Shown: positions 1-60,929 of the stretch, one piece after another
How the letters are laid out: each line of letters begins with the position of its first letter
Numbering within the stretch: position 1 is the stretch's first letter
NCBI GenBank assembly: GCA_905197045.1
Contig: CAJJXG010000003.1
Location: 30,146-94,145, forward strand
DNA: 64,000 nucleotides
Origin: an uncultured Bacillales bacterium
GTDB taxonomy: Bacteria; Bacillota_I; Bacilli_A; RFN20; CAG-826
Direction: 5' to 3'
The notes under the pieces: generated by a model
The model's input: the letters and a program-made list of their open reading frames with translations, nothing else
Told to the model about the DNA's origin: nothing
Databases searched by the model: none
Made by a program: the position numbers and the translations under genes

Positions 1-331
1 CTAAACAAATTAAAAAAGTAAGCGAATATACGATGATCCATTTTTTAGAAAATTTCGATTCATCGTAATACTCAGCAAGGCGATATTCGTAGATAAAAGC
101 GACCGTAAAGATTAAAACATAGATTAAAAAGCAGATAAGTAAAATATAAAACTGAGCTGAACCGTTAAATTCAACTAAGCCTAAGAAATTACCTAAACTT
201 GCAATAGGATTGGTGCTTACAAAAAGTGGCTCACGCGCATCGATTGCAAGCCCTGCAATTAAGACCATCACACAATAAAAATAGACGATACCAATTGCAA
301 TGAAATTTTTTCTCGTAAAATGTGTTTTCAT
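1..331 (-). CDS. Polytopic membrane protein, 3' end outside the window; last visible gene of the fibre-like operon
   Basis: ATG at 331-329, five nt after the sipW-like stop, with AAGGAG 8 nt upstream. The reverse frame stays open to base 1. Translation MKTHFTRKNFIAIGIVYFYCVMVLIAGLAIDAREPLF...FYILLICFLIYVLIFTVAFIY shows several hydrophobic helices. It is absent from the ORF track because it runs off the edge. Confidence 0.5.
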   Translation of the reverse strand, partial: MKTHFTRKNFIAIGIVYFYCVMVLIAGLAIDAREPLFVSTNPIASLGNFLGLVEFNGSAQFYILLICFLIYVLIFTVAFIYEYRLAEYYDESKFSKKWIIVYSLTFLICL

Positions 332-336
332 ATATT

Positions 337-1389
337 TTACTCCTTGTTGCCTCTTTTATCTTTGTCTAGTTTTGAAACTAGATTATTCCATTTTTCCTTG
401 ACTTTTGCAGAGATTTCTTTAATTTTTGAAGGTTTTTCATTCCCTTCACTCTTTGCTTTTTCTTTGTTAAGGTATGTTTCACCTTCTTCATTAATATTCA
501 TCTTTAAAACGATTTCAGGATTGTCTTTATAGTTAATTACTTCGTTATAATCGATTTTTATTTCTTCTTCAACTGGAAGAGAAGAAGAATAATCATATTT
601 AATAACGCTATCTAAATATTCAATTCGTGATTCAATGCTTTCTTCATATTTATTACGGTAATGATCAAACATAAGTAAGCAATAAACAACCGATAAAACC
701 GTAATTATTCCTGAATTAGATTGAAGGAAAACAATAAAAACGCCTAGTAAAGGAACTCTAGCATCGTTATATTTTCCAATGATTTTATCGTAAGTTAAGT
801 AGCCATTATATAGTCTATTTGTATCGCTTATGGCATTTGAATCGCCTCTAGTTACAAAAGTATTATCATCTCTAATTTCAATGATTCTATGAACGTAAAT
901 GACATCATCTTCCCCATAAAAAGCGACAACATCATATTGATTTATCTCTTCTACGCTTTGATATTTTGTGACGCCGATTATATCGTAAGTATCAAATTGA
1001 TTGTTGAGATTATATTCATCTAAGTAGTCATTAGCACTATTTCTTTCTGACATCGAGCCAGAGCTAATAACAATAAAACCCGAATCGCCAAAAAGAAGAT
1101 TGTTATTAAAAAAGCGAGAATATAAAGAAAAACCAAAAAAGGCTACTACTAAGCCCAAAAATGCATAACTTGTAATTCTTGAAGCGATGCGCTTTGTTTT
1201 TTCGCTTTTCTTTTTATTCTTTTCAATTCTTTCTTTATTATATTCAATTACTTCTTTATCAGCCTTGCCTTCTTTTATTTCATTAATATTAGAAAGATAA
1301 TAATGTCTAAAAAGAAAAGTGAAGACTAAACAAAAGCTCACTAAACAAATAATAGTTACAACAAGAGATAAGATTTCGACGTTATTCAT
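337..1389 (-). CDS. sipW: Signal peptidase I, ER/archaeal (S26B, SipW-like) type, with long N- and C-terminal extensions
   Basis: Catalytic boxes SSGSMSE (Ser), VIYVHRII (His) and TRGDSN (GDxN box) appear in the order seen in SipW/Sec11-type peptidases. TM segments flank the catalytic domain. The start overlaps the upstream paralogue's stop by 8 nt. Confidence 0.75.
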   Translation of the reverse strand: MNNVEILSLVVTIICLVSFCLVFTFLFRHYYLSNINEIKEGKADKEVIEYNKERIEKNKKKSEKTKRIASRITSYAFLGLVVAFFGFSLYSRFFNNNLLFGDSGFIVISSGSMSERNSANDYLDEYNLNNQFDTYDIIGVTKYQSVEEINQYDVVAFYGEDDVIYVHRIIEIRDDNTFVTRGDSNAISDTNRLYNGYLTYDKIIGKYNDARVPLLGVFIVFLQSNSGIITVLSVVYCLLMFDHYRNKYEESIESRIEYLDSVIKYDYSSSLPVEEEIKIDYNEVINYKDNPEIVLKMNINEEGETYLNKEKAKSEGNEKPSKIKEISAKVKEKWNNLVSKLDKDKRGNKE

Positions 1390-2089
1390 TATTTGTTGCT
1401 CCTATATATGATGGGGTGATGGTTAGATCGATTGGAAGTAAACCTTTGGCTTTTGCGGTAAAATCTTCTAAATATTCACCAATTTTTGAAATGTCGCCTT
1501 CCCATAAACCTGGGTTTTTATCATTAAATTTTGAGCCCCAAGCAAACTTATAAGTTAAGATCACTAAAGCACCTTTAAAATCATCATCATAAGTAATGCT
1601 ACCTTCAATATAAGAATTGTTTGTAGTTAAAGGGATTTTAGTTAAAGGATCCGAGGAAGTAGGCAAATTAAAACTAAAATCAGTTAAGCAATCTGCCACG
1701 ATATAGTTTTCCTTATCAAGTTCTTGATATTTACTAATTGATGTACTATTAAAAGAAGCTGTAATTTTAAAAGTATTAGCATCATTAATGGTTCTAGATG
1801 ATTCAAGTCTAAAATTAACAGTAAAAGATAAATCTTCCTTTCCATCATCTCCATTTGAAATATTAGTGCCACCATTTTCGACATTATCGAAAGCAATATT
1901 TAAATCGCTTTTTTGAATTTCAACAATTAAAGTTTTGTTTGTTAAATCGCCAACCGAAACAGTTACGCTTGTTTTATCATCAAGCGAACCATCGATGTTC
2001 CAAGTTGCAAAACCTACACCAACTAAAGAAAGTGCACTAAGAGCAATTACTCCATAAACTATGTATTTATTCTTTTTTCTATTTTTCAT
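1382..2089 (-). CDS. Exported protein with SipW-cognate-like signal, paralogue 6 of 6 (candidate fibre subunit)
   Basis: N-terminus MKNRKKNKYIVYGVIALSALSLVGVGFATWNIDG, followed by an alternating strand TSVTVSVGDL. C-terminal motif FAWGSKFNDKNPGLW, ending in DLTITPS. No lipobox Cys. Confidence 0.6.
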   Translation of the reverse strand: MKNRKKNKYIVYGVIALSALSLVGVGFATWNIDGSLDDKTSVTVSVGDLTNKTLIVEIQKSDLNIAFDNVENGGTNISNGDDGKEDLSFTVNFRLESSRTINDANTFKITASFNSTSISKYQELDKENYIVADCLTDFSFNLPTSSDPLTKIPLTTNNSYIEGSITYDDDFKGALVILTYKFAWGSKFNDKNPGLWEGDISKIGEYLEDFTAKAKGLLPIDLTITPSYIGATNNE

Positions 2090-2102
2090 ATTCCTTTACT
2101 TG

Positions 2103-2837
2103 TTAACTTCTACTTGGAGTAATAGTTAATTTAATCTCTGGATTACCACCATTAACATTTCCATAAGCAGTTTCAAAAGCTTTTAAAGTACTCATGATGC
2201 TTTCAGCATCAAATCCATCAGCACTCGTAATTGTGCACGGATTTTTTCCTGCAGGATTATTTCCTGCAAAAGCACTACCCCATTTAAAAGCAATAGTCGT
2301 TTCGATTGTTGCAACTGTAAATTCTGGGTTATAAGTAACATTGTTTGTAATATTTGAATTATTAACATCTGACATTGATCCAGCAGCTTCAGGTAAAGTA
2401 AATTCACAATTAGTTAAACAAGTTGTGTCAATATATTGAGGAGTTCCACCAATTGCAGTTTTTAAAGCATCTGCATCGCCGCTAAAATTATAACTTACCT
2501 TACAACCTTTATTTAAAGCGGTTTTACCTGTGATTGTATAAGTAAATGTGACATCCAAATTTTCGGTCGTTTCTTCACCGTTTGTTATAAAGTCACCTGA
2601 GCAACTATCCGCCTTTAAAGAATCAAATCTAATTGGATTAGCTAAATCGCTACCATTAATAATTTCTGCGGTTAAAGAAGCGTCATCAATTTCGCCAATT
2701 TCGACGCTAATTGTTGCGTTGACGCTTGTATTTGTAGGATTTTTAATTACCCAACTAGCAAAACCAATGCTAGCTAAACTAATAAAAGAAACTCCTAGCA
2801 AAATTGATATTAGTTTTTTATTACTTTTAATTTTCAT
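2103..2837 (-). CDS. Exported protein with SipW-cognate-like signal, paralogue 5 of 6
   Basis: N-terminus ...SLASIGFASWVIKNP, then ATISVEIGEID. C-terminal FKWGSAFAGNNPAGKNP and KLTITPS. Confidence 0.6.
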   Translation of the reverse strand: MKIKSNKKLISILLGVSFISLASIGFASWVIKNPTNTSVNATISVEIGEIDDASLTAEIINGSDLANPIRFDSLKADSCSGDFITNGEETTENLDVTFTYTITGKTALNKGCKVSYNFSGDADALKTAIGGTPQYIDTTCLTNCEFTLPEAAGSMSDVNNSNITNNVTYNPEFTVATIETTIAFKWGSAFAGNNPAGKNPCTITSADGFDAESIMSTLKAFETAYGNVNGGNPEIKLTITPSRS

Positions 2838-2839
2838 AA

Positions 2840-3637
2840 TTAGTTAGATTCTCCTTCACTTACTAAAGTGAGAGTAATGGTAATTTCTTTACCATTTAAA
2901 TTTTGATTCATTGTATCAATATCATTTCCATAAAGTTCTAGAACTGATAAGTAGTTATTTAAAGCAGTTTGAGTGTCTCCGTTAGTTTCTCGAGCTGTTT
3001 TATAATCCTCTTTATAGTCATTAACTTTTCCTTCATAGAAAGACTTTGGATCATCGCCATTAAAGAAACTACCAGGTTTAATTCCAAATTGAGACATATC
3101 AAAATTCTCAATTTTATAAAAAGAAGTTCCAAGAGCAGTAAATTTTTCTTTAGGTAATGCTATTGTTGGCTGAGTTATAGCAAAATATTCGTATTCTTTA
3201 TTTGATTCTCTACCAATGAGCTGTTCTGCATCACTTGAAGATGCTATAACTTTATTTTTATTATTTCTATCATCTTCTGCAGGCTCTTCATTGCTATCTC
3301 CAATAAATATACTAGATTGAATAGAAAGAGAATTGCTACTGCTACTATTAAAAACCGAATTATAAACATCGCTAGAAATAACGATATCGCTTGTTCCACC
3401 TAAAGTCACACTAGATTGACTTTCAACATTTAAAGTAGGATTAGACTCACTAGGCGTATAATCAATAACTTTAGAAAAATCGTAAGAAACATCAATATTT
3501 ACAGATAGATTTAAAGAATTATTTCCATCTCCTAAAGAAATAATCCATGTTGAAAAGCCAATACTTGCTAAAGAAAGTATTGTACAAGCAAAAATTCCTA
3601 ACGAAATATGTTTGATTTTCTTAGATTTATTAAGCAT
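2840..3637 (-). CDS. Exported protein with SipW-cognate-like signal, paralogue 4 of 6 (most divergent, Ser-rich)
   Basis: N-terminus ...SLASIGFSTWIISLG, then LNLSVNIDVS. The C-terminal motif is degenerate (GIKPGSFFNGDDPKSFY). Contains a Ser/Asn-rich low-complexity stretch SSSSNSLSIQSS. Confidence 0.55.
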   Translation of the reverse strand: MLNKSKKIKHISLGIFACTILSLASIGFSTWIISLGDGNNSLNLSVNIDVSYDFSKVIDYTPSESNPTLNVESQSSVTLGGTSDIVISSDVYNSVFNSSSSNSLSIQSSIFIGDSNEEPAEDDRNNKNKVIASSSDAEQLIGRESNKEYEYFAITQPTIALPKEKFTALGTSFYKIENFDMSQFGIKPGSFFNGDDPKSFYEGKVNDYKEDYKTARETNGDTQTALNNYLSVLELYGNDIDTMNQNLNGKEITITLTLVSEGESN

Positions 3638-3656
3638 AAAGTTTATTTATTCAATT

Positions 3657-4454
3657 TTAAGCGGATGCTTTAGGACTAAGTTCTAAACTAACTTCAATTT
3701 TCATTGTTTTACCAACAAATGCACCCTTCATTGCAGCTAGTTCAGTTTTTACTTGTTCTAATTTATTAACTTTTTGAACCGTTGTATCGGTTGATGGAAT
3801 TTTACTGTTATAAAATTCTGAAGGAGTTTGGCTACCATCACCAAATAAAGTGCCCCGTTTAAAAGTAAAAACATTTTGTTTAAACTTCATAAACGTATAA
3901 GCTGAGCCTTTATATTCAGTTTCTGTTTCAAAATAGGTATCAAGATTACTAGTAGTTATCTCTAAACCATAACCAGAGCCGCCAGATAAAGCTTTTCCAC
4001 CTACAAGATCAATATAGGAATATTCTTTTGCTGCTAACCCTAAAGCATTTCCTTCTGTTCTTGTATACGTTGGCCACTTAGCGTTATCAATAGTCAATTT
4101 TAAAGTTAATTTGCTAAATTCAAAACTATCATTTGAATAAACAAAATTGAATTCCTTTAAATTTATAGTCAAATCTTGAGTTTTTGAGTTATTGTTATCA
4201 AATCCGATAACTCTACCTTGGTCTAAACTTATTTCAGCACTTTCACAAAAAGTTAAACCAGTTTCATCATCAGCTTTAGCAATACTCACATATTGCGTGC
4301 TATCTTTTACAACATCAATATCAACAGAAACTTCAGCAGAAACGCTTGTTTGAGTTAAGCCAGTAAGCCAAGTTGCTAAACCAACAGAGCTTACCGCAAC
4401 TGTAGCAAGCGCTACGCCAAGAATAGTATATTTTTTAGTTTTATTGAGTTTCAT
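3657..4454 (-). CDS. Exported protein with SipW-cognate-like signal, paralogue 3 of 6
   Basis: N-terminus ...AVSSVGLATWLTGLT, then AEVSVDIDV. C-terminal FKRGTLFGDGSQTPSEFY. Confidence 0.6.
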   Translation of the reverse strand: MKLNKTKKYTILGVALATVAVSSVGLATWLTGLTQTSVSAEVSVDIDVVKDSTQYVSIAKADDETGLTFCESAEISLDQGRVIGFDNNNSKTQDLTINLKEFNFVYSNDSFEFSKLTLKLTIDNAKWPTYTRTEGNALGLAAKEYSYIDLVGGKALSGGSGYGLEITTSNLDTYFETETEYKGSAYTFMKFKQNVFTFKRGTLFGDGSQTPSEFYNSKIPSTDTTVQKVNKLEQVKTELAAMKGAFVGKTMKIEVSLELSPKASA

Positions 4455-4469
4455 AACTATTACCTGTAA

Positions 4470-5291
4470 CTATGCACTCACTTTTTTAATAGCTTCGACC
4501 TTAAGAGTAAGCTCTTTTAAATTGGTTTTCATTGCTCCTAGTTCTTTAGTAGCTTTTTGAGAAGCTTTAAACAAAACATCGAATTTATCTTTACCAAAAT
4601 ATGCGCCACCTTCTTCAAAATCTGCATCAGTATATAAAGAATTGTAGAAATTAACAGGGGATTTACCTTCTAATGCATCCTTGTCAAAAAATGTGCCCCA
4701 TTTGAAATTAAAATTATTCTTTTCACCTTTAATGGTGTATTCTTTAAATCCATCAGTATCAGGACCAGTGATTGTGAAATTTTCATCGGTCAAATCTAGA
4801 GTTACATCAGCAAATGAAACATAAGTCCAAGAGGAGCCTTTTCTTTTGCCGTGTTCACTAAATTCATTAGTTGTAACGGTGTTCCCTTGATTTAAATTAA
4901 CAGTACCAGCAGAATAAACAGGTAAAGAAATTTTTATTGCATCAGGTTTGCCAACAAAATCATCTGCACTCATGGTTAATTTTAATTCAGAAAACGTAAA
5001 ACCAAGATAATTTTCACCAGCAGTATTAATTTCACCTTGTTTTGCTTCAATTATTTTATAATCTCCACCATCACTTCCTGTTCCTGCAGCTTCAGCTAAT
5101 TTTATTCCTTTAGCAATTTTAGCTGATAAAAATACAGATTGATTAGTTGTATCATCAACAGTAGCAGTAACTTTTACATCTTCGCTAGTTTTTTGAACGC
5201 CAACAAGCCAGGTAGCAAAACCAACAGTGCAAACTGAAAGAATAGCTAAAGAACTTACACCTAAAGCGATGATTTTATTTCTTTTTTTCAT
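4470..5291 (-). CDS. Exported protein with SipW-cognate-like signal, paralogue 2 of 6
   Basis: N-terminus ...SVCTVGFATWLVGVQ, then VKVTATVDD. C-terminal FKWGTFFDKDALEGKSPVNFY. Confidence 0.6.
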   Translation of the reverse strand: MKKRNKIIALGVSSLAILSVCTVGFATWLVGVQKTSEDVKVTATVDDTTNQSVFLSAKIAKGIKLAEAAGTGSDGGDYKIIEAKQGEINTAGENYLGFTFSELKLTMSADDFVGKPDAIKISLPVYSAGTVNLNQGNTVTTNEFSEHGKRKGSSWTYVSFADVTLDLTDENFTITGPDTDGFKEYTIKGEKNNFNFKWGTFFDKDALEGKSPVNFYNSLYTDADFEEGGAYFGKDKFDVLFKASQKATKELGAMKTNLKELTLKVEAIKKVSA

Positions 5292-5325
5292 AAGAATACC
5301 CCAAATATAAATTATTTAATACGTT

Positions 5326-6144
5326 TTATTCACCAGTAACAGCAGAGAATAAAACATGGATATTTTTTCCATCAAATGCTTGGCTGAGCGCATCAAATTC
5401 GCCTTTAACAAGATTAATATCTTCTGTACTATTTTGAATTTGTTTACGAGCAAAATTACCTACCTCAACTTTCGAATATTCTCCAGTGTACAAATCATTA
5501 TAAAATTTGCTTGGAGTTTTTCCGTCAAAGAAGGAGCCCCATTTAAATAAAGTAATATTTAAACTCTCTGCGGTATATGTAATATCTCCTGTTTCACGAT
5601 CTGTTGCCATTGTAAAACCGTTATTAGAGCCATTGTCTGTAGGTAAAACATACTCAGAAGTAGCGATATCTAAATATGTGTAAGTTGCACCTTCCCTAAT
5701 ATTAGTTGCTTGACCAACTACTACATTATTATTTTTTGTGCCATCGTTAGGATCAGTATACGAAACGCCACCTTCTGCTCCTGGATTAAAACCAATAGTG
5801 ATTTTTGTAGGTCTTTCATTTTTAGGAACTCCACTACCTACTGTTAAGGTAACGTTAGCAGTAACTACAAAATCTGTAGCTTTTCCACTATCGATTGTTA
5901 TAAATTCGCCTTGAGAGCTTTCTTCGCTAATACTAACTGCTGCTTCAGTTAATTTAACCTCTAAAACAATATTATTCGTTCTAGCAGTATCAACAGTAAC
6001 ATTAGTTGTACCATCTACCTGAGTTGTAGTGGCACCAATAATCCAAGTAGCGAAACCTGTCGTTAAGAGTGCCACGCCACCAAAGATCAAAACGCCATTA
6101 ATAACGGCTTTTCTAAACGAAGAATTTTTTAATTTCTTTTTCAT
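5326..6144 (-). CDS. Exported protein with SipW-cognate-like signal, paralogue 1 of 6 (first gene of the operon)
   Basis: N-terminus ...ALLTTGFATWIIGAT, then TNVTVDTA. C-terminal FKWGSFFDGKTPSKFY. Confidence 0.6.
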   Translation of the reverse strand: MKKKLKNSSFRKAVINGVLIFGGVALLTTGFATWIIGATTTQVDGTTNVTVDTARTNNIVLEVKLTEAAVSISEESSQGEFITIDSGKATDFVVTANVTLTVGSGVPKNERPTKITIGFNPGAEGGVSYTDPNDGTKNNNVVVGQATNIREGATYTYLDIATSEYVLPTDNGSNNGFTMATDRETGDITYTAESLNITLFKWGSFFDGKTPSKFYNDLYTGEYSKVEVGNFARKQIQNSTEDINLVKGEFDALSQAFDGKNIHVLFSAVTGE

Positions 6145-6309
6145 CTGAATAATCCCTTCCTAGTTTGCGGCTAGTAATGAACTTTAGCAAATGCGAAATT
6201 GAAGAATGTTGACTTAATCGTCTAGTGAAAGCTTCCTTACACAAACTTTACCGGCAAGAATAGGAATTAATCCCTCTCACGCTTTTGCAACTTTACTAAA
6301 GTCTTTTTT

Positions 6310-6330
6310 ATATGTATCTATGATACATAT
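6310..6330. promoter_or_regulatory. Inverted repeat (9-bp perfect arms, 3-bp spacer) upstream of the six-paralogue operon; candidate operator
   Basis: atatgtatc-tat-gatacatat read directly from the sequence. It lies about 170 nt upstream of the first ATG (6144). Confidence 0.3.
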
Positions 6331-6605
6331 CTTATTGTCGAAAGACAAGATATCGAAGAGTATATTTTTTACATATTTCACAAAAAAGACGCAAAAGTGA
6401 ACTATTTTTTGATTATTTTATAGGAATTTTCTATTCAAAACTTCTCATTTTTGGCAGTTTTCTTCCATTTTTGCATTTTTGAAAACTTATTATTTTGTTA
6501 AAAACCGTCATTCGTAATTTGTTCAAAATATCTGTATTTAGAAACGAATAATAAATGAAACAAGCTTTATTGCAAGTAAAAAACTATCCTTAAATAAAGT
6601 TTTTC

Positions 6606-7067
6606 GGACATTATTGTGCAGCTGCGAATTTAGACAAGACGCCTGGAAAAGTTGTTTCGCTTAATGAATACCGTTGGAATATCGAATACATGTTTAGAAC
6701 GATGAAAACTAATTAAAATGCTCACCCACTTTTTGTGTATACTGAAGAACACATTAAAGGACATTTAAAGATTGTTTGTTTAAAATTAAATGTTTTAAGA
6801 TTGCTTCATTTAGATATGTATAAAGTTATAAGAAAAACTGAAGATATTGAAAAACTAGGTGATGAAGATCCGGATTATGAATGGCTTACTTTAAATAAAA
6901 TTTTAGATACTTTAAGAGACATGAACTTAATGGAATTAAACGTCGAAGAAGAGTTCTTTGTTCCTTCATTTACAAGAACAAAACTTAAAGAGGCATTAAG
7001 AAAAACTTATGAGATCGCATTAGCGAAATCATTAATAAGAGGAAAAATTCTCAAGAAATTTAAATAG
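6606..7067 (+). pseudogene. 3' remnant of an IS4/IS1634-like DDE transposase
   Basis: Translation GHYCAAANLDKTPGKVVSLNEYRWNIEYMFRTMKTN-stop contains the Y-x2-R-x3-E-x6-K signature. It continues as ...EEHIKGHLKIVCLKLNVLRLL..., a typical C-terminal tail. An internal stop is present and no N-terminal catalytic part is visible. Confidence 0.6.
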
Positions 7068-7098
7068 TTCGCTACAAAAATTTTAAAGCGACACAGTG

Positions 7099-7126
7099 AA
7101 AAAAGCGATGGTTATCGCTTTTTTTC
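7099..7126 (-). terminator. Rho-independent terminator downstream of the GH13 gene (bidirectional shape)
   Basis: aaaaagcgat-ggtt-atcgcttttttt: the stem is flanked by an A-run on one side and a T-run on the other. Confidence 0.6.
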
Positions 7127-7187: not shown

Positions 7188-8936
7188 TTAAATATGTGCA
7201 CTAAGAAGGATAAAACCATAGGAATTTATGCTCTTTCCTTCGACTTTATTAGAAAGAACAATCTTGCTATCATCCTTTAAAAAGTTTGCTAAATTTAAAC
7301 TTTTATTAGAATTATTAATAATTAAAGTATACTTATCGTTTAAATAGATTCTTCTTAATATTAATAAGCCTTCATCACTATAACTTAGTTCCATCTCTCC
7401 TTTTTTAAAAGCATCTAGCTTTCTTAAAGCAAAGATCTTTTTCATTAAGGCAAATTCTTCACTATTAAATTCTTTTGAATCCCATTCCATACCTTTACGG
7501 TTAAAAGGATCATCTCCTCCTTCCATAAAGATTTCATCACCATAATAAACCATTGGTAAACCAATAAAAGAAATTAAAAATAATTCACTTAATAAATATA
7601 AATCCTTATTACCATTTAAATAACTATAAAAACGATGAGCATCATGACTATCAATGAGATTAAGAAGCATCTTATTTGTTGGAGTTTTATAGCGGATTAA
7701 TTCATTATTTAATCTTTCAACAAACTCTTTAGTAGAGATTGTTTTATCTGCAAAATAAGCTTTTAAGTTAAATAAGAAAGCATAATTCATTGATGAATCC
7801 CATTCATTAGAATTTAAAAAAGAATAAGCGTTATACCAACATTCTCCAATTATAAATATATCTTCTTTAATCTTTGTTAATTCTTTTTTAAATTCAATCC
7901 AAAAAGAATGAGGTATTTCATTTGAGACATCAAGTCGATAAGCATCAATATCGCATTCTTTTAAATAATACTTAGCAACTTCTAAAAAATAGTTTTTAGC
8001 TAAATCATTATTAAGATTTACTTTAGGCATCATAAAGCTTTCAGAAAAGCTCATATAATTAATTGGTTTTTGATATTTAACTTCATCTCCTTCAATCATG
8101 TAAAAATCAAAGTATTTAGAATGTTTACCATTTTTAATTACATCTTGAAAGAAAGGATGGAAAAAGGAAGTATGATTAAAAACAAGATCCATGCAAACTA
8201 AGATATCTAACTCATGAGCTTTTTTAACAAGTTCTTTAAAAGTTGATAAATCTCCTAAACGAGGATCAATTTCATAATAATCTAAAGTGTCGTATTTATG
8301 ATTAGAGTTAGCTTTAAAAATTGGGGTAAGATAGATTGCACCAATTCCAAGATCTTTTAAATACTCTAATTTGTCCTTTACTCCTTTTAAATCTCCTCCT
8401 AAAAAGATTGGATGATATTTCCCATCTTTAAATGCATATAAATCAGTTGAATCCCAGCTTCTTGTAACATAATCCTTATTTAATGAGTCTGAAGATTTTT
8501 TAAAGCTATCAACAAAGATTTGATAAAAGATTCTTCCTTCAAATTTAGAGTTAACTTTTACAATGTCATTAGAGTTTATAAAAGCATAACGAAAAGCACT
8601 AATTTGCGAGTAAGTATAATCATAACTTTTGCTTAGTCCTTCATCAGATAAATAATACTCTTTATCATCTTTATCAATAATATGAAAGATATAAGAAAAA
8701 GATGGGAAGTTATTAAAAAGCGTTGCTTCATAATAAAGAAAATCTGAGTCAGAGTATTTAATCTCCATCTTTTTCTTTTCTCTTTCTTTAATAAAGCGCA
8801 TTGCTGGATTAAATAAAACTTCCACAAGTTTAAAAGAATCTTCTTTACTTGCTCTTAAACGTAAAGAGAGAGTTTTTTCATCAAGAGGATAAGCATATTC
8901 AGAATCTATTCTATGTAACAAAGCTAATCTATTCAT
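7188..8936 (-). CDS. GH13 alpha-amylase family enzyme, neopullulanase / cyclomaltodextrinase / maltogenic amylase-like, cytoplasmic
   Basis: GH13 conserved regions are present: DLVFNHTS, DAYRLDVSNEIP, IIGECW, LIDSHDAHR. An N-terminal domain precedes the barrel. No signal peptide. Confidence 0.85.
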   Translation of the reverse strand: MNRLALLHRIDSEYAYPLDEKTLSLRLRASKEDSFKLVEVLFNPAMRFIKEREKKKMEIKYSDSDFLYYEATLFNNFPSFSYIFHIIDKDDKEYYLSDEGLSKSYDYTYSQISAFRYAFINSNDIVKVNSKFEGRIFYQIFVDSFKKSSDSLNKDYVTRSWDSTDLYAFKDGKYHPIFLGGDLKGVKDKLEYLKDLGIGAIYLTPIFKANSNHKYDTLDYYEIDPRLGDLSTFKELVKKAHELDILVCMDLVFNHTSFFHPFFQDVIKNGKHSKYFDFYMIEGDEVKYQKPINYMSFSESFMMPKVNLNNDLAKNYFLEVAKYYLKECDIDAYRLDVSNEIPHSFWIEFKKELTKIKEDIFIIGECWYNAYSFLNSNEWDSSMNYAFLFNLKAYFADKTISTKEFVERLNNELIRYKTPTNKMLLNLIDSHDAHRFYSYLNGNKDLYLLSELFLISFIGLPMVYYGDEIFMEGGDDPFNRKGMEWDSKEFNSEEFALMKKIFALRKLDAFKKGEMELSYSDEGLLILRRIYLNDKYTLIINNSNKSLNLANFLKDDSKIVLSNKVEGKSINSYGFILLSAHI

Positions 8937-9334
8937 ATATTCCCTTTCATCAAGTTAATATTATAAAAGAAGCTCTATATTAATTAATAGATAATCTTTT
9001 TAAACTTTTTAAAAATATTTTTTAATTTTACGAACTAAACTCCTTTATATTAGTGAAGGAGTATTAAGCTTTACTCTTTCACTTATTTTAGGAGGTGATG
9101 ATCTTCATTTAATTATTAGTTTTATTGCACTTTTATTCATCTTAAGTGTCTCTAACTTATGCATTTATTTTTAAATAAGAAAGTCTTTTTCTTTATTTAA
9201 CTAATTTCTTCTTACTAAGAAGAAATAGTCTTAGCTTAAGTTAATAGAAACAAAAAACTTCCCTATTTTATTAAAAATAGTGCAAAAATGGCATTAAATT
9301 TGCTTTTTTAAATTACGTTTGCTAGAATCTATTT

Positions 9335-9838
9335 ATGACAAGCAAAAGATTTTTAAGAAAAGTAAGTTTATCCGATTTGACTGAGTTATCCTTAATGCTC
9401 AAAGATTTTTGGGTTTCTCAACTTATTGAAGCAAGCGATGAAGATATATTAGAAGACATTAGAAGGATGCTTTCTCCTAAATGTTTTGGCTACCTTATTA
9501 TGCTTGATAATAATATTGCCGGCTTTACTTTTGTTAATGAAAAATATGGCTATACCAATAACATTGAATATCTTTATATTAAACCTGAATTTAGAAGAAA
9601 AGGTTTAGCTAGTTTTGCTTTAAAAAAGATTAAGGAAATAGTCCTTGCTAAAGGAAATCCACGTGTTCAAATTGAAGTTGCTCCAAATAATATTAGTGCT
9701 TTAAAGCTTTACTATAAGCAAGGCTTTACTTCAATTGACACTATTACTTTATCGACTTCTATCGCTGGAAAAACTAAAAAATTCACTTTCCAAAACATGG
9801 AATTTTTAGCTAATCCAAAAGAATCATTTAAAGAATAA
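9335..9838 (+). CDS. GNAT family N-acetyltransferase
   Basis: Acetyl-CoA binding motif A-like segment IKPEFRRKGLASFALKKI; 167 aa. Confidence 0.7.
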   Translation: MTSKRFLRKVSLSDLTELSLMLKDFWVSQLIEASDEDILEDIRRMLSPKCFGYLIMLDNNIAGFTFVNEKYGYTNNIEYLYIKPEFRRKGLASFALKKIKEIVLAKGNPRVQIEVAPNNISALKLYYKQGFTSIDTITLSTSIAGKTKKFTFQNMEFLANPKESFKE

Positions 9839-9918
9839 TTAATAGAGAGAACATCTATAAATTATCACTAATTATTTAGTTGCAATTTAAGAAAGTATAA
9901 TTAAAATATTCTTTCGGT

Positions 9919-11328
9919 ATGCAACTGAAGTCTATGGATTTAACTAGTGGATCAACCACTACTTTAATCAAAAAAGTAATATTATTTTCTTTGCCATTAA
10001 TGCTCGTCGGATGCCTCGAAATTTTATTTTCAACATTCGATTTAATAGTCATAGAAGGATATGAAGGTGAGTTAGCGGCTGCTGCTGTTGGAGCTAACGC
10101 TGCTTTAAACTCCCTTTTGACAAATGTTTTTATAGGCTTATCAGCTGGAGAAAACGTTATCATCGCTAAATATTATGGCGAAAACGATAAGGTTTCTGCT
10201 GAAAAAGCTTGCTATTCTGGGTTAATTTTAGCTTTTTTATCTGGAGTTATAGTAATGATTATCGGCTATTTTTTAGCTCCATCATTATTAAAACTTCAAA
10301 ATGTTGACGAATCATATTTTAATTTAGCGGTTGAGTATTTAAGAACTTATTTTTACGCTCTTCCTTTTATTAGCATTTATAATTTTGGTAGTGCAATCTT
10401 TAGAGGAACAGGTAATTCGAGAATGCCTCTTATATTTTTAGGCATTGCTGGCTTACTTCATATATCACTTAATTATCTTTTTGTTTACGCTTGTCATTTA
10501 TCAGTTGTTGGAACTGGATTAAGTAGTATATTTTCTTATCTAACAGCTTCTATACTTGTATTTATCTTCTTAAAGAAAAATAAGAACTTTATCGACTTTA
10601 AATTTAAAAAGATTCGTCTATATAAGAAAGAGACACTTGAGATATTAAAAGTTGGAATACCTAGCGGACTTCAAGGAATGATTTTTGCTGTTTCTAACAT
10701 GATACTTCAATCAACTGTCAATACTTGGGGCCCTCGCGTTGTTGAAGTTAATGCGGATTGTGAATCAATTGAAAACTTTTGCTACACTTCTATGTTTTCA
10801 ATTGCTCAAGGCGGCTCAGCTTTTATTAGTGCAAATTATGGAAAAGGCGAAACTAAAAACGTTAAAAAACTCATATTTATAATTGAAGGCGTCTGTATGG
10901 GTTTTGGCTTATTAATCGGTCTTTCGCTTTTGGCTTTACACACTCCTTTAATTGCTGCTTATACAGGTGGAAAAGCTGATTCAGAATTTTATTTATTATG
11001 TTTTGAAAGATTATCACTTCTTTTACCAACTTACTTTATATGTGGAGCCATGGATTCTTTCACTAATTTCTTACGTGGATTAAATAGAGCAATAATTCCA
11101 ATGATAATCTCAATCTTTTGGGCTTGTATTTTTAGACTTATTTGGAATTTCTTTATTTATTCTCCTGATCCAGAAAGTATCATGCACTCTACTCTTATTT
11201 TATATACTTGTTATCCAGTAAGTTGGTGCGCTTCTTTAATCAGTCAATTAGTTTATTATTTAATTGAACGCAAAAAAATCTATCGAGAAATCGAAAAGAA
11301 TAAAGTTGCTTTTCAAAATGCTCAATAG
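9919..11328 (+). CDS. MATE family efflux transporter
   Basis: About 12 TM helices. N-terminus DLTSGSTTTLIKKVILFSLPLML is typical of MATE/NorM-like pumps. 469 aa. Confidence 0.8.
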   Translation: MQLKSMDLTSGSTTTLIKKVILFSLPLMLVGCLEILFSTFDLIVIEGYEGELAAAAVGANAALNSLLTNVFIGLSAGENVIIAKYYGENDKVSAEKACYSGLILAFLSGVIVMIIGYFLAPSLLKLQNVDESYFNLAVEYLRTYFYALPFISIYNFGSAIFRGTGNSRMPLIFLGIAGLLHISLNYLFVYACHLSVVGTGLSSIFSYLTASILVFIFLKKNKNFIDFKFKKIRLYKKETLEILKVGIPSGLQGMIFAVSNMILQSTVNTWGPRVVEVNADCESIENFCYTSMFSIAQGGSAFISANYGKGETKNVKKLIFIIEGVCMGFGLLIGLSLLALHTPLIAAYTGGKADSEFYLLCFERLSLLLPTYFICGAMDSFTNFLRGLNRAIIPMIISIFWACIFRLIWNFFIYSPDPESIMHSTLILYTCYPVSWCASLISQLVYYLIERKKIYREIEKNKVAFQNAQ

Positions 11329-17764: not shown

Positions 17765-20665
17765 TTAATAATTTTGTTCGTAAATCTTATTTAATTCATC
17801 CCCAGAATGCGCTGTAACATATGAGTTCATTTCATCAAGCGTGAACTCTTCGCCTAAGTTTACTAAATCTAATTTTGCACCAAGAGCAATAGTAAGAAGA
17901 ACATTAATGTTTAAACTAACATCAATACCACTTAAAGTACTAGTTTCTTTATCGTTATCTACAAAAACTTTAAGGTTCAAATCACTAAACATTTTCATTT
18001 TAGTTAATTCAGCTAAGTTAAGGCCAAAATTGAAATATGGTGTATCTGAAGAATCATTATAAGAGAAATCTTTTAAGAGATTTTCATAATGAATTATTGA
18101 ATCACTACTTCCAGAATCACTATTTCCTGAGCCAATTAAGCTCATCGCAAGATCATTAAACCCTAATATAGTTCGGCAAAGATAAGTAACTATATTATCA
18201 AGGAAATTGTCTAAATCTGCTTTAACATAGGTTTCATAAGTTTTTTCTTTTCCTAAAAATGGTAATGTATCGTATTGTTCAATTCTATGTATATAGAACA
18301 TTTCATCTTTCATATAGAAGCTAGCTCTTCTGTTTCTAACATTAAATTGATCCCAATAACCATTATTGACCCCAGAAATCGTAGGAACATTTGGAAATTC
18401 AATAGCAAGACTTACATTTCCTTTTTCATTTAAGATTTTAACATCAATTGGAATATCTTTATCAACTTTCGCTATTCCAAGATCTACATTAATATGAGCG
18501 GCGCCACTAAAATGATAATGGTTATAAATTGAAGTATTAATTCCAAGTCTAAGCAAAACAGCTAAACTATCAAACTCAATATAAGTATCAGATGGATCAA
18601 GTCTTGTCTTATCTAATGCATCATTATATTTATTAAGATTGATTTTAAAAGAGTAGACACTATCGCCATATTTAAAATCTTTAACTTCTAATGATTTCAA
18701 AATTTCAGATGGATTTTCGACTGTATTATCAAATTCGATAACTACTTTTAAAGTCGAGTCAATGCCAATTAAACCGCCTTTTAAGCCAAGTTCAAGAGAG
18801 TTAGAAGTAACATTTAAAGAGTCGATTAGTCCAATTTCAAATAATTTTCCATAATCTTTATTGTTTATTGCTTCCATTATAGGAAGAGAACCCATTGAAT
18901 TTAATAAATCGCCAAATAATTCATAGAAATGGTCATCTTTGTTATTTAAGATTTCACTTACCATACCAATAACATCAGTAAAGAAATTAGAAGAAAATCT
19001 TCCTTTTGTTACATCATTATAAGTAAATAAGATTTCATCGTAACTTCTCATATCAACTTTGATGTTATGATTATAAGTTGATGAATCGACTAAATTTAAT
19101 TCGCCATAGCCAAACTTATTATTAATATCAAATTGAAGACCACCATCAACGCTTAAATCTTGATTTGCGCTACTTGTATCATCAACACTACCTGTAAAAT
19201 CTAATCTAAATCTTGATTCGCGTGAAAGTCCTTCAAAAGCATTAACTAAGCCAAAAGCAGGATCAATAGCAACATATTCGTCCATATTAAAGCTAATTGG
19301 ACTATATTCTTTAGTTGTTAAATTAATATTTGCTTTATATCCATTTACATCTAAACCAGTAATAGAAATTCCTTTAAAAGCATGAGTATCAAAATTTAAA
19401 GCAATTTTAATATCTGTCGCATTAATGCCTAAAATAGTTAAATCTAGAGTAACGATTAAAGACTCTTCATGAGATTCAATTTTCTTAATAATATTATTGA
19501 TAGTACTTAAATTATCAATAATGCCTAATATATCGTTATTTTGAAGAATATCGTTCATTCCAGCCAAAGCTTCGTTTAAGTAATTGTCTTCAACTTTCTT
19601 TAAAATGTAATCAATCAATGCAAATATATTTTGATTCTCAACTTTAAATTTCAAGTTGTTATAGTTTACAAGTAAATTATCATCTTGCATTCCAAGTTTA
19701 AATGCATGAGTTCGATCGTGATTTTCTTCAATGACACTACCATTAAAAGATAAACGAGAAAGCTCAGTATCATAAGAAAGATCGCCATTAAATTTTATAT
19801 AAGGGTTATTTAAATTAGTAATGTTTACATCTAAATTAAATGTATTGTTTGTTTTATTAAATGCATTATAGATTCCGTTAATTAAATCAAAAGTAGGTGA
19901 AAAATCTTGATATTCTCCAATATCTGGTTCTGTAAAAGTTAAAGGAGCATCCAGTTCTTGATTAATATCAAAATCTAAATAGATATAAGTATTTTCAAAA
20001 TAGAATTTATTAGTTTTTACGCCGACAAAATTATAGTTTTCATCACTCTTAAAAACTAAATCGATATCTTCATTTAAAGAAAGTTTAAATAAATAGCCAC
20101 CATTTATTGCTTCAGGCTCCATCGAACTTAAATCATTCATTACTTTGTTTAAATCGAATTTAGTTAATTCTTCAGGTAAAGACAAATCAATTCCATAATT
20201 TGGAATCATGTTAACAAATTCGAGTAATGAACTAGTTTCTAAATATAATTTGGCTTTTTCATAATCCAAGAAAATCTTCCCGTTGAAATAGTTAATATCG
20301 CCATAGAAATTAACGCCATTAACTTTTACATCTAACCTACCTTCAAAACGAGTGTTGTTTAAATTTTCTGTATCAAGTCCTAAGGCTCCATCAACATTTA
20401 TATTTGCGGTTTTGTTATCAAATGTTACTTCTATTCCGCCATCAATTTCAGCTTCATCAAGAGTAATAAGACTATTTAATAATCTTTGAGCTGGAGATAG
20501 ATTTTGATTGCTATTCCCGCCATTATTGTCTTGACTGCCATTATTTGCTCCACTATTTGGAGTCTGATTTCCTCCGGAATAGTCGTAAAAAGAAGCAAAA
20601 GCGACCCCAGTTGATACAACTAGTGTACTAGCCCATAAAATTACTTGTTTAAAAATAGGTTTCAT
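17765..20665 (-). CDS. Large secreted protein of unknown function (966 aa)
   Basis: Signal peptide MKPIFKQVILWASTLVVSTGVAFA, then an N/G/S/Q-rich linker. The remainder is N/D-rich with an alternating beta-like pattern. I recognise no catalytic motif. Confidence 0.5.
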   Translation of the reverse strand: MKPIFKQVILWASTLVVSTGVAFASFYDYSGGNQTPNSGANNGSQDNNGGNSNQNLSPAQRLLNSLITLDEAEIDGGIEVTFDNKTANINVDGALGLDTENLNNTRFEGRLDVKVNGVNFYGDINYFNGKIFLDYEKAKLYLETSSLLEFVNMIPNYGIDLSLPEELTKFDLNKVMNDLSSMEPEAINGGYLFKLSLNEDIDLVFKSDENYNFVGVKTNKFYFENTYIYLDFDINQELDAPLTFTEPDIGEYQDFSPTFDLINGIYNAFNKTNNTFNLDVNITNLNNPYIKFNGDLSYDTELSRLSFNGSVIEENHDRTHAFKLGMQDDNLLVNYNNLKFKVENQNIFALIDYILKKVEDNYLNEALAGMNDILQNNDILGIIDNLSTINNIIKKIESHEESLIVTLDLTILGINATDIKIALNFDTHAFKGISITGLDVNGYKANINLTTKEYSPISFNMDEYVAIDPAFGLVNAFEGLSRESRFRLDFTGSVDDTSSANQDLSVDGGLQFDINNKFGYGELNLVDSSTYNHNIKVDMRSYDEILFTYNDVTKGRFSSNFFTDVIGMVSEILNNKDDHFYELFGDLLNSMGSLPIMEAINNKDYGKLFEIGLIDSLNVTSNSLELGLKGGLIGIDSTLKVVIEFDNTVENPSEILKSLEVKDFKYGDSVYSFKINLNKYNDALDKTRLDPSDTYIEFDSLAVLLRLGINTSIYNHYHFSGAAHINVDLGIAKVDKDIPIDVKILNEKGNVSLAIEFPNVPTISGVNNGYWDQFNVRNRRASFYMKDEMFYIHRIEQYDTLPFLGKEKTYETYVKADLDNFLDNIVTYLCRTILGFNDLAMSLIGSGNSDSGSSDSIIHYENLLKDFSYNDSSDTPYFNFGLNLAELTKMKMFSDLNLKVFVDNDKETSTLSGIDVSLNINVLLTIALGAKLDLVNLGEEFTLDEMNSYVTAHSGDELNKIYEQNY

Positions 20666-51390: not shown

Positions 51391-51459
51391 ACCCAATTTC
51401 TCGGACAAATATCTTTCATTTTGAGACCATTGCTTTGTATCAAAATGTTAGTACAAATA
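51391..51459 (+). repeat. Island-associated repeat, copy C (left part), abutting the 3' end of tRNA-Leu
   Basis: acccaatttctcggacaaatatctttcattttgagaccattgctttgtatcaaaatgttagtacaaata aligns with copies A and B. Confidence 0.8.
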
Positions 51460-51548
51460 TGGTGGCGCAAAGAAGACTCGAACTTCCACGAACTTTTCAG
51501 TTCATCGGCTTCTGAGACCGATACGGCTACCGATTACGTCATTGCGCC
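51460..51548 (-). tRNA. tRNA-Leu (anticodon CAG), CCA encoded
   Basis: Reverse complement GGCGCAA-TG-ACG..GG..CGT-A-TCGGT-CTCAGAA-GCCGA-(long variable arm GAAC/GTTC)-GGAAG-TTCGAGT-CTTCT-TTGCGCC-ACCA. It has a 7-bp acceptor stem, a 7-nt anticodon loop with CAG, and a canonical T-loop. Confidence 0.85.
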
Positions 51549-51603
51549 ATTGCTAAAATTATGCCACTATCAAGTTAATTTTAAAATAACTATAATTTTA
51601 GAT

Positions 51604-52344
51604 ATGGATCAAAATGAATTAACTAAGATTAATGAACTTCAAAAATTAATCGACGAAGCTAAAAATATCGTTTTCTTTGGTGGCGCTGGAGTTTCAACAG
51701 AAAGCGGAATACCAGATTTTCGAAGCGAAAAAGGTTTATATAAACTCAAAAGTAAATATGATAAACCATATGAAGAAATGCTCTCGCACTCCTATTTCAT
51801 AAATCACGTCGATACTTTTTTTGAATTTTACCGTGAATTTATGATTAATCAAGATGCTTTACCTAATATAACTCACAAATATTTAGCAGATAAAGAAAAG
51901 AATGGCAAACATATCACGATAATTACTCAAAATATCGATGGACTTCATCAAAAAGCGGGTAGCAAAAATGTAGTCGAACTTCATGGCTCAATTCATAGAA
52001 ACTATTGCACTAATTGTGGTAGATTCTATAATCTTGATGAGTTTTTAAACCTTGCACCTAACGAACGCTGTCCTAAATGTAATGGAATCATTAAACCAGA
52101 TGTTGTTTTATATGAAGAACCATTAAATGATATGACAATTACTAAAGCTCTTATTGCTCTTCAAGAAGCTGATTTATTAATAATTGCTGGAACTTCATTA
52201 AATGTCTATCCTGCAAACGGATTAATTAGATACTTTTATGGAGATAATATTGTAATCATCAATAAAAGTGAATTACATATAGTACGTAAAGTAAAATTAA
52301 TTTTTAATGACAATATCGGTAGCGTATTTTCAAAACTAAAATAA
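51604..52344 (+). CDS. cobB: NAD-dependent protein deacylase, Sir2 family (CobB-like)
   Basis: GAGVSTESGIPDFRS, QNIDGLH, and Zn ribbon CTNCG...CPKCNG. Start moved to MDQNELTK (51604) because the upstream part of the track ORF overlaps the tRNA. Confidence 0.85.
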   Translation: MDQNELTKINELQKLIDEAKNIVFFGGAGVSTESGIPDFRSEKGLYKLKSKYDKPYEEMLSHSYFINHVDTFFEFYREFMINQDALPNITHKYLADKEKNGKHITIITQNIDGLHQKAGSKNVVELHGSIHRNYCTNCGRFYNLDEFLNLAPNERCPKCNGIIKPDVVLYEEPLNDMTITKALIALQEADLLIIAGTSLNVYPANGLIRYFYGDNIVIINKSELHIVRKVKLIFNDNIGSVFSKLK

Positions 52345-55282: not shown

Positions 55283-55299
55283 ATTTTTGTGCTCCTTAA

Positions 55300-55510
55300 A
55301 TAAAAAAGATTGCATCGCTCGATGCAATCTCAATAATTCAAGTTACACCGATAGCGCCACTAGATAAATTTCTAGGAGTCTATTGGAATATTCTTCCATA
55401 GCCCAATCAACTTCTATGCCTAGAAAGTTGTTTCGGCAGTTATACCTTTCGCTTGTTTCTTAGAATGCCTTCTCCACAAGTTACTCTTTTAAACTGCGCC
55501 TCTATCAATC
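55300..55510 (-). promoter_or_regulatory. Lysine riboswitch (L-box) with intrinsic terminator expression platform
   Basis: The minus strand reads GATAGAGGCGCAGTTTAAAAGAGTAACTTGTGGAGAAGGC...GAAAGG...CTGCCGAAAC...TTGGGCTATGG...CTAGTGGCGCTATC. From memory, this follows block by block the B. subtilis lysC leader: GATAGAGGTGCGAACTTCAAGAGTATGCCTTTGGAGAAAG...GAAAGG..CGCCGAAG..CTGGCCGTG. A terminator agattgcatcg-ag-cgatgcaatct plus T6 follows at 55330-55301. Confidence 0.7.
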
Positions 55511-55520
55511 TTCGGCTATT

Positions 55521-59383: not shown

Positions 59384-59388
59384 CACTT

Positions 59389-60927: not shown

Positions 60928-60929
60928 TT

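Follow-up and report, generated by a model that had tools for sequence, protein, structure and literature searches.

The stretch of DNA considered here, a 64,000-nucleotide segment of contig CAJJXG010000003.1 (GenBank assembly GCA_905197045.1, positions 30,146 to 94,145) from an uncultured Bacillales bacterium, which we refer to as the window, opens on the minus strand with six tandem genes for paralogous proteins (P1 to P6), followed by genes for a long signal peptidase of the Sec11/SipW type and for a membrane-bound, McrB-like GTPase (Table 1). The gaps between these genes, from P1 to the eighth, are 34, 15, 19, 2, 13, -8 and 5 nt. The window holds the 5' part of an operon of 12 genes, six paralogues and six others, and its start truncates the operon within the GTPase gene; the full GTPase gene of the same genome is found at positions 9059-10888 of ENA contig L024. 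On the 3' side of the GTPase gene lie genes for an McrC-like protein, an ABC ATPase, a 12TM_1 permease and an N-terminally anchored extracellular protein of ~830 amino acids (aa). The last three are co-directional with the genes before them, and some starts overlap. From the gaps of -8 to 34 nt and these overlapping downstream starts, the genes from the paralogues to the exposed protein are one transcription unit.

Table 1. Features of the operon and of its upstream flank, in window coordinates (TM, transmembrane helix).
Feature	Position	Strand	Remarks
P1	5326-6144	minus	272 aa; first gene of the operon
P2	4470-5291	minus	273 aa; junction VGFATW
P3	3657-4454	minus	265 aa; junction VGLATW
P4	2840-3637	minus	265 aa; junction IGFSTW; most divergent paralogue
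P5	2103-2837	minus	244 aa; junction IGFASW
P6	1382-2089	minus	235 aa; junction VGFATW
Sec11/SipW-type signal peptidase I, long form	337-1389	minus	350 aa; 8-nt overlap with P6
Eighth gene, membrane McrB-like GTPase	1-331	minus	first 110 codons (TM1-TM3) of 609 aa; remainder past the window start
Hypervariable block	1426-6035	minus	mature-coding parts of all six paralogues
Upstream non-coding leader	6145-7097	minus	~950 nt; candidate promoters
Hairpin terminator	7098-7125	not assigned	12-bp stem, then T-run
Alpha-amylase gene	7188-8936		upstream of the operon; amylase Pfam matches on the same gene in L024

The six proteins can be aligned from end to end, with 21-30% identity to P1, and M1, G17, G30, W34, Y157, G203, F206 and P211 are invariant in the alignment. 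Judged from their sequences, the paralogy of the six goes beyond chance, since pairwise BLAST scores among them reach 74 bits and a profile built from them reaches 479 unnamed relatives at E-values down to 1e-74. All six begin with a K/R-rich n-region and a hydrophobic stretch that runs into the junction G-[FL]-[AS]-[TS]-W. Of 88 paralogues from 22 other loci, 77 have this junction too, and the remainder carry near variants such as AFSTW, GFSNY and GFATY. In P1 the n-region is long and basic and the h-region ends ...ALLTTGFATW; the ten residues A-L-L-T-T-G-F-A-T-W are invariant in 17 P1 orthologues, the rest of the protein being 26-47% identical. The junction is followed by a strand-prone stretch of ~20 residues with the conserved motifs T-W-[IV]-[IV]-G ... 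V-x-V-D-T. At the putative cleavage site, between [AS] and [TS]-W, the G at -3 and the A or S at -1 satisfy the signal-peptidase rule, and the W is invariant at P2', a position at which an aromatic residue has been reported to make TasA depend on SipW and not on LepB (PMC10269814). From these sequences we strongly infer that the paralogues are exported by Sec and cut by the peptidase at this site. The hydrophobic segment precedes the G-F junction, which therefore belongs to a Sec signal and not to a class III signal; with that segment on the wrong side, and no E at +5, a type IV pilin reading of the junction is ruled out. Lipoprotein identity is likewise ruled out, because no lipobox is conserved (the Cys residues of P2 and P4 lie mid-helix and are not kept in orthologues), and no RR motif for twin-arginine (Tat) export was found in the paralogues.

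Much of this had been put forward in an earlier sequence-only reading of the window, made without database searches. The eight co-directional genes it described, with gaps of -8 to 34 nt, all lie where it had placed them, and the six tandem paralogues have the lengths it gave (235-273 aa). The basic n-region, helix and G-[FL]-[AS]-[TS]-W junction that it read in the six are present in every one, as are the strands it listed after the junction (VTVSV, ISVEI, VSVDIDV, VKVTATV), and its claim that none of them carries a lipobox Cys was borne out. The C-terminal box that it proposed as a third shared feature fared less evenly: G203, F206 and P211 are indeed invariant, but P4 reads IKPGSFF and the FY is missing from P5 and P6.

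The peptidase matches the NCBIfam SipW model NF046067 at E 1.3e-14 (54.2 bits, cut-off 190) and the model for archaeal-type signal peptidase I, TIGR02228, at E 3.9e-13 (49.6 bits, cut-off 51.85), and it aligns with human SEC11A/C over the His and GDxN boxes. The Ser, His and GDxN boxes that the sequence-only reading had noticed are real: G111-S112-M113, H167-R168 and G182-D183-x-N185 are invariant in 18 orthologues, and the peptidase is therefore predicted to be one that should be active. With TM segments assigned by hydropathy, a charged cytoplasmic loop separates an extra TM helix (9-27) from TM2 (72-90), the catalytic domain lies between TM2 and TM3 (217-235), and the C-terminus is a charged tail of ~115 aa; the extra N-terminal TM1 contains eight residues that are invariant in the 18 orthologues. 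On these matches the enzyme is a divergent, long-form relative of the Sec11/SipW type (MEROPS S26B) and not a SipW equivalog. We also note, elsewhere in the window, a gene on the minus strand (17765-20665) for a 966-aa secreted protein whose signal peptide ends ...STGVAFASFYDYSGG; its junction, VAFASFY, resembles both the G-F-A-T-W of the paralogues and the ...TWA/AF of TasA (slash, cleavage), and the protein has no NCBIfam match. It may be a further substrate of the SipW-like peptidase.

In the product of the eighth gene, four TM helices occupy the N-terminal 165 residues; an E/K-rich helix of ~30 residues follows, and a G/S-rich linker leads from it to an AAA_5 domain. No N-terminal nucleic-acid-binding domain is present, the four TM helices standing there instead. 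The AAA_5 match is borderline (20.7-22.5 bits, cut-off 22). Invariant in 17 orthologues are a Walker A motif (GLSGTGKS), a Walker B motif (VLDE) and T-A-N449-K-D451-D, in which ANKDD (NxD, then D) lies 59 residues past Walker B; the NxD variant defines the CoCoNuT-related branch of McrB GTPases (PMC11090510). By tblastn the GTPase domain is 35-38% identical (E 1e-50) to plasmid AAA ATPases adjoining DUF2357 proteins. These plasmid relatives sit in CoCoNuT-type operons that lack signal peptidases and contain DUF2357/nuclease proteins, TerY-P-like kinase and phosphatase genes, and restriction genes. A profile search with the GTPase gave a weak match to McrB (E 0.56) and another to ATP synthase subunit b (E 0.58), which also combines a TM segment with a long helix. 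A homologue search with the GTPase alignment returned close orthologues alone and therefore did not reveal distant loci of the CoCoPALM class discussed below, and single-sequence searches of the PDB with the GTPase and the McrC-like protein returned nothing useful.

The McrC-like gene lies directly 3' of the GTPase gene in all loci. Its product matches DUF2357, the N-terminal domain of McrC, at 25.9-27.8 bits (cut-off 23.3), and in the alignment its C-terminus forms a zinc ribbon (CPxCG...CxxC). Across 16 orthologues it has no invariant D..(D/E)xK triad past DUF2357 and no nuclease match in Pfam. With no nuclease motif in this protein, an active restriction enzyme is ruled out. Two variant loci deserve mention. 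In one metagenomic contig (L026:6329-7589) the McrC-like gene is called as a C-terminal fragment of 187 aa with the zinc ribbon alone, which could be a disrupted copy or an artefact of assembly or gene calling. In two others (L014:13154-15823 and L020:13154-15808) an extra exported protein of ~885 aa, rich in N, S and T, is encoded between the peptidase and GTPase genes; it has no match in Pfam, NCBIfam or PADLOC.

A scan of 1.84 billion cluster representatives with the paralogue family returned, at E<=0.001, 1848 clusters (50% identity), and the top 150 of them are all 230-345 aa long. Related genomic loci were recovered by search with P1 orthologues, and 22 of 22 come from uncultured gut Bacilli or metagenome-assembled genomes of 'Mollicutes' from human, chicken, sheep and horse, under names that include Candidatus Onthovivens and Clostridium sp. 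CAG:568; the window's own contig is from a human gut metagenome. Onthovivens belongs to the GTDB order RFN20, family CAG-826, a placement that fits the co-occurrence of these names in one paper. The host bacteria have small genomes and probably lack peptidoglycan. In every one of the ~20 loci that extend far enough, the gene order is the same: paralogues, long peptidase (337-374 aa), membrane GTPase (601-636 aa) and DUF2357/zinc-ribbon protein (451-486 aa). The comparison that the sequence-only reading had proposed thus upholds its pairing of a family-specific signal junction with a neighbouring SipW-type peptidase, which is kept in each of these loci. The order is conserved between genomes whose P1 proteins share 27-42% identity, and the machinery itself is 54-74% identical across genera. 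Between genera, conservation covers the entire downstream gene order but not the neighbours upstream of the operon.

The number of paralogues per locus is two, three, six or seven. When the six paralogues were compared with those of six other six-gene loci, 33 of 36 best matches fell at the same operon position: P1 is the position-1 orthologue in all six-gene loci, P2 finds its best match at position 2 in 6/6, and two-gene operons keep a P1-type and usually a P5/P6-type gene. On these best matches the six paralogues are therefore old and specialised. Positional orthology of this kind is the pattern of ordered heteromeric assemblies and not that of recent antigen amplification.

Within the species the picture is one of hypervariability. 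Five contigs of the window's species were compared. By blastn, the DNA of contig L023 agrees with that of the window at 96.7% identity over 6761-6035 and 1426-1, that is, over a 5' flank comprising leader and the first ~36 codons of P1, ending at T-W-I-I-G, and a 3' flank comprising the last 15 codons of P6, the peptidase and the eighth gene; between these flanks it shares short patches of 67-91% alone. The five downstream genes have 95-100% protein identity within the species, whereas for the six paralogues there are two strongly diverged types, with 30-47% identity between them. The cassette of L031 is a mosaic, its P1-P2 being of the window type (78-81%) and its P3-P6 of the other (76-83%). 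Within one type, the ratio of nonsynonymous to synonymous substitution rates (dN/dS) is 0.25-1.3 for the paralogues as against 0.01-0.16 for the machinery. Such replacement of a cassette is a signature of exposed structures under immune or phage selection, and the recombination is anchored in the conserved signal-peptide and flanking sequences. The last gene of the operon also occurs in two allelic forms, of 829 and 844 aa, with 60-62% identity between forms and 92-99% within them, and these assort independently of the paralogue cassette types (L023:12135-14624, L031:13792-15053).

Upstream of P1, the leader contains candidate -35/-10 pairs at 6637-6610, 6575-6548 and 6348-6320. The hairpin terminator closes the alpha-amylase gene and so marks the 5' limit of the operon; the same amylase-type gene adjoins the operon in three other loci and in the four contigs of this species that extend to the upstream side. 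On the opposite strand to the operon, between it and the amylase gene, a 110-codon open reading frame (ORF; 6735-7067, plus strand), annotated as a gene in L024 too, has a weak match, at E 0.005, to the C-terminal end of IS1634 transposases and is probably an insertion-sequence remnant adjoining the hypervariable cassette.

What the paralogues look like was approached with AlphaFold2 models of P1 and P6. For residues 54-272 of P1 the predicted local distance difference test score (pLDDT) is ~90; they form a confident globular domain, largely of beta strands, in which two helical segments near the C-terminus precede the last strand. Residues 1-53 score below 50. The P6 model has a mean pLDDT of 68 and the same order of secondary-structure elements. 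The 20 residues past the P1 junction are modelled below 50, yet carry conserved motifs. Foldseek searches with the two models gave no match at E<0.01 in the PDB, TasA included (best E 0.07 and 0.01), and no match among viral structures (BFVD), and the family profile has no match among PDB sequences. No Pfam or NCBIfam family is significant for the six paralogues or for 149 diverse relatives.

The sequence-only reading had taken the paralogues for a TasA-like family, and had proposed hidden Markov model (HMM) searches and a Foldseek comparison as checks; this part of it does not survive. Neither Peptidase_M73 in Pfam nor TIGR04088, TIGR04089 or TIGR04090 in NCBIfam matches any of the six paralogues at E<=1 or any of the 149 relatives at E<=0.01, and no TasA-like jelly-roll was recovered from the P1 and P6 models in the PDB. 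When the family profile was aligned by hhalign with TasA (a sequence first checked to be identical to PDB 8AUR over residues 28-261), the signal peptides alone were aligned, G-F-A-T-W over G-G-G-T-W, at a probability of 1.7%. The N-terminus of P3, and of P3 alone, touches the NCBIfam model for TafE (NF052522) at E 0.012, but this match is not significant, its 15.3 bits falling far below the cut-off (155). Homology to TasA, AbpA, BsaA or TafE is rejected on these HMM, profile and fold searches, and by the same matches and misses the locus is not one of the TasA family.

The closest published description is that of Bell et al. (eLife 2024), who reported NxD GTPases fused to an FtsB-like TM segment and coiled coil, and linked to proteins of the signal-peptidase family, as likely pilus-assembly systems; they named the clade CoCoPALM and left it to a later paper, so that its description amounts to two sentences (PMC11090510). 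Our literature search found no follow-up on CoCoPALM, and the text supplements of Bell et al. do not mention it. The present locus shares with this class an NxD McrB-like GTPase with a membrane and charged-helix N-terminus, an adjacent DUF2357 McrC homologue that lacks a conserved nuclease motif (reportedly frequent in that branch), and a signal-peptidase gene in the operon, which lies immediately 5' of the GTPase in all 20 loci reaching that far. It differs in its four TM helices and ~30-residue charged helix, FtsB homology not having been detected, and the published account is without substrates, gene lists or experiments; the two to seven paralogues, the junction motif, the ABC exporter, the exposed protein and the hypervariable cassette do not appear in it. 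We suggest that the locus is best filed as a variant of this barely described class. The sequence-only reading had known of no characterised arrangement of this kind, which needs qualifying in that CoCoPALM has been named (PMC11090510) and similar loci with multiple pilins and a peptidase are known in haloarchaea (Tafi; PMC12337348). Its simple fibre locus, too, stands in part: the paralogues and the peptidase are real, but the operon goes on with the GTPase, the McrC-like protein, the ABC exporter and the exposed protein.

Other systems offer partial likenesses. The tapA-sipW-tasA operon of B. subtilis and the sipW-tasA-calY operon of B. cereus also set a Sec11/SipW-type peptidase gene beside two or more paralogous or cognate secreted substrates, which are of similar size and have an aromatic residue just past the cleavage site. 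In contrast, the mature proteins here show no homology or fold match to theirs, the peptidase is longer (350 aa, where SipW has ~190 and its NCBIfam profile 189) and adds a TM helix as well as cytoplasmic tails, the operon adds GTPase, McrC-like and ABC genes, and the host is probably wall-less. The haloarchaeal Tafi system comprises the pilins TafA, TafC and TafE, the signal peptidase TafD, the anchor TafF, and TafG (PMC11821415, PMC12337348). There, as here, one locus holds several paralogous subunits (major, minor, tip and anchor) with their own signal peptidase. The Tafi locus builds a surface pilus by strand donation, and its number of pilin paralogues varies by species. Tafi is, however, archaeal and mostly Tat-secreted, with no NTPase described in its locus, and Foldseek recovered no TafE-like beta-sandwich here. 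Type IV filament systems, among them type IV pili, T2SS pseudopili and the Com pseudopilus, are alike in logic, with tandem major and minor subunits, a conserved N-terminal hydrophobic segment, a dedicated peptidase, a cytoplasmic hexameric NTPase on a membrane platform and pilin alleles that vary between strains, but the components are unrelated: the peptidase here is a Ser/His enzyme and not an aspartyl prepilin peptidase, and the NTPase an AAA+ GTPase of the McrB type and not a PilB/GspE ATPase. McrBC type IV restriction systems and CoCoNuTs, finally, have the same adjacent pair of AAA_5 GTPase and DUF2357 partner, and CoCoNuT-type plasmid proteins are those that the GTPase domain resembles; here, however, four TM helices replace the DNA/RNA-binding N-terminus, there is no conserved PD-(D/E)xK or HEPN nuclease, and the module is embedded among genes for exported proteins.

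We propose, with a probability of roughly 0.45 and hence at somewhat less than even odds, that the operon encodes a peptidase-processed, GTPase-assisted, heteromeric and antigenically variable surface appendage. The six paralogues would be exported by Sec and cut by the operon's own Sec11/SipW-type peptidase at G-[FL]-[AS]/[TS]-W (slash, cut), exposing a strand-prone N-terminal extension of ~20 residues; the six position-fixed subunits would then form a pilus- or fibre-like heteromeric appendage held on the membrane, with the roles of base, shaft and tip split among specialised subunits. Assembly or turnover would be controlled or powered from the cytoplasm by a hexamer of the McrB-like GTPase together with its McrC-like partner, a machine that would probably dock on the extra TM helix and charged cytoplasmic tails of the peptidase, and exposure of the structure would lead its mature parts to diversify and to recombine from strain to strain. 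The role given to the extension, the ordered assembly and the powering by the GTPase are argued from gene linkage and by analogy, the models being TasA, Tafi and type IV filaments; from the same layout we infer the role of the GTPase and the physical coupling of the parts. A bolder form of the proposal, which we regard as doubtful but worth stating, is that the operon specifies a new filament class: a heteromeric pilus of two to seven ordered subunits with an unseen fold, released by a Sec11-type peptidase and assembled or retracted by a GTPase hexamer with an McrC-like activator devoid of nuclease motifs.

Several points weigh against an appendage of this kind. The fold of the paralogues matches no strand-donating pilin (TasA, AbpA, TafE), nor anything else in the PDB, and their polymerisation is proposed by analogy and from gene linkage. 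The AAA_5 match and both SipW matches are at or below the curated cut-offs. CoCoPALM is defined by an FtsB-like fusion, which was not recognised as such here: the GTPase has no Pfam match to FtsB/DivIC, and its N-terminal part consists of the TM helices and charged helix described above. McrBC-type modules are normally defence systems, and the GTPase matches a candidate-defence model in PADLOC. The downstream ABC genes may be conserved through synteny alone, and, given the similar junction on the 966-aa protein, the peptidase may serve more than this operon.

It is also possible, though unlikely, that the paralogues form a variable surface coat, a heteromeric membrane-proximal complex or S-layer-like lattice that shields a wall-less cell, with the GTPase and ABC proteins concerned with its turnover or with some other envelope task. 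The within-species hypervariability and raised dN/dS would suit any exposed coat, the domains are predicted confidently, as compact units that do not obviously require a partner, the last operon gene is likewise exposed and exists in two allelic forms, and a protein coat would be useful to such cells. A coat has, however, no obvious need of six ancient position-specific paralogues or of a dedicated peptidase, it leaves the tight coupling to a membrane AAA+ GTPase unexplained, and the conserved but unmodelled N-terminal extension is better explained by contact between subunits.

Clearly less probable is a role in conflict, in which the McrB/McrC-like pair would be a CoCoNuT-like anti-phage core and the paralogues phage sensors or decoys whose signal is relayed through the membrane. 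The nearest annotated relatives of the GTPase domain do sit in plasmid CoCoNuT-type operons, the GTPase matches PADLOC PDC-M26A at 8e-36, and hypervariable exposed proteins are typical of phage-host arms races. Of the operon proteins compared with PADLOC, however, the GTPase alone matches, with nothing for the McrC-like protein, the peptidase, P1 or P6, and a match to PDC-M26 as a whole system is ruled out. Beyond this, the McrC-like protein is without a conserved nuclease motif, and the operon encodes neither a HEPN protein nor any other effector; conservation of the machinery is high, both across genera and, at 97-99% identity, within the species; and the recurrent amylase-type upstream neighbour is unlike what is seen in mobile defence islands.

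We consider it slightly less credible again that the locus reflects housekeeping, with the SipW-like enzyme as general signal peptidase I, the paralogues as abundant monomeric antigens, secreted or anchored, and the downstream genes as mere syntenic neighbours. A small set of secretion enzymes is common among reduced Bacilli; within the 64-kb window no LepB-type gene was seen, and the 966-aa protein has a related junction. Synteny, though, is confined between genera to the downstream side, overlapping start and stop codons link the genes, and a specific partnership is suggested by the ten invariant h-region residues of P1 together with the extra TM helix conserved in the peptidase. A fibre of true TasA, BsaA or AbpA homologues that self-assembles by donor-strand exchange after SipW cleavage, without a motor, is very improbable, for although the SipW-type peptidase adjoins its substrates, the paralogues (235-273 aa) are about the size of TasA (261 aa) and hhalign superimposes the two junctions inside the signal peptides, no sequence, profile or fold likeness extends beyond that signal, the TasA register would place I, V, L or N, unsuited to cleavage, at -1, and the strictly linked GTPase and McrC-like genes would be left unexplained.

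Away from the operon, several large ORFs of the window have lipobox-like signal starts (for example ...LGLAAC and ...VAVTTSC), among them 57878-62687 on the plus strand and 42733-45492 and 53606-55333 on the minus strand, which fits the remark in the sequence-only reading that the other surface proteins here are mostly lipoproteins. The last of these ORFs is preceded by a lysine riboswitch (55344-55512, minus strand, 82.6 bits). A tRNA-Leu(CAG) at 51460-51548 on the minus strand is overlapped by a predicted ORF on the plus strand (51421-52344).

We have found no earlier report of the substrate family or its junction motif, nor of the positional orthology or of cassette replacement within a species. 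The operon offers a concrete, fully delimited example of the CoCoPALM association, in which candidate substrates, a junction motif and accessory genes are identified, and it makes testable what a nuclease-less McrB-type GTPase does in the envelope. The paralogue family itself, with ~1850 clusters, no model in Pfam or NCBIfam and no PDB-like fold, merits definition as a family. The surface of the host bacteria is almost unstudied because they have never been cultured and are probably wall-less, though they are common in human and animal guts; the strain-to-strain divergence marks the exposed parts as a target of host antibodies or phages, and the locus as a candidate adhesin or serotyping locus. 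Were the operon indeed to specify a new class of filament, it would represent the re-use of a restriction-enzyme motor for envelope assembly, and its product would rank among the main strain-variable surface antigens of these Bacilli, which are abundant in the human and animal gut and probably wall-less.

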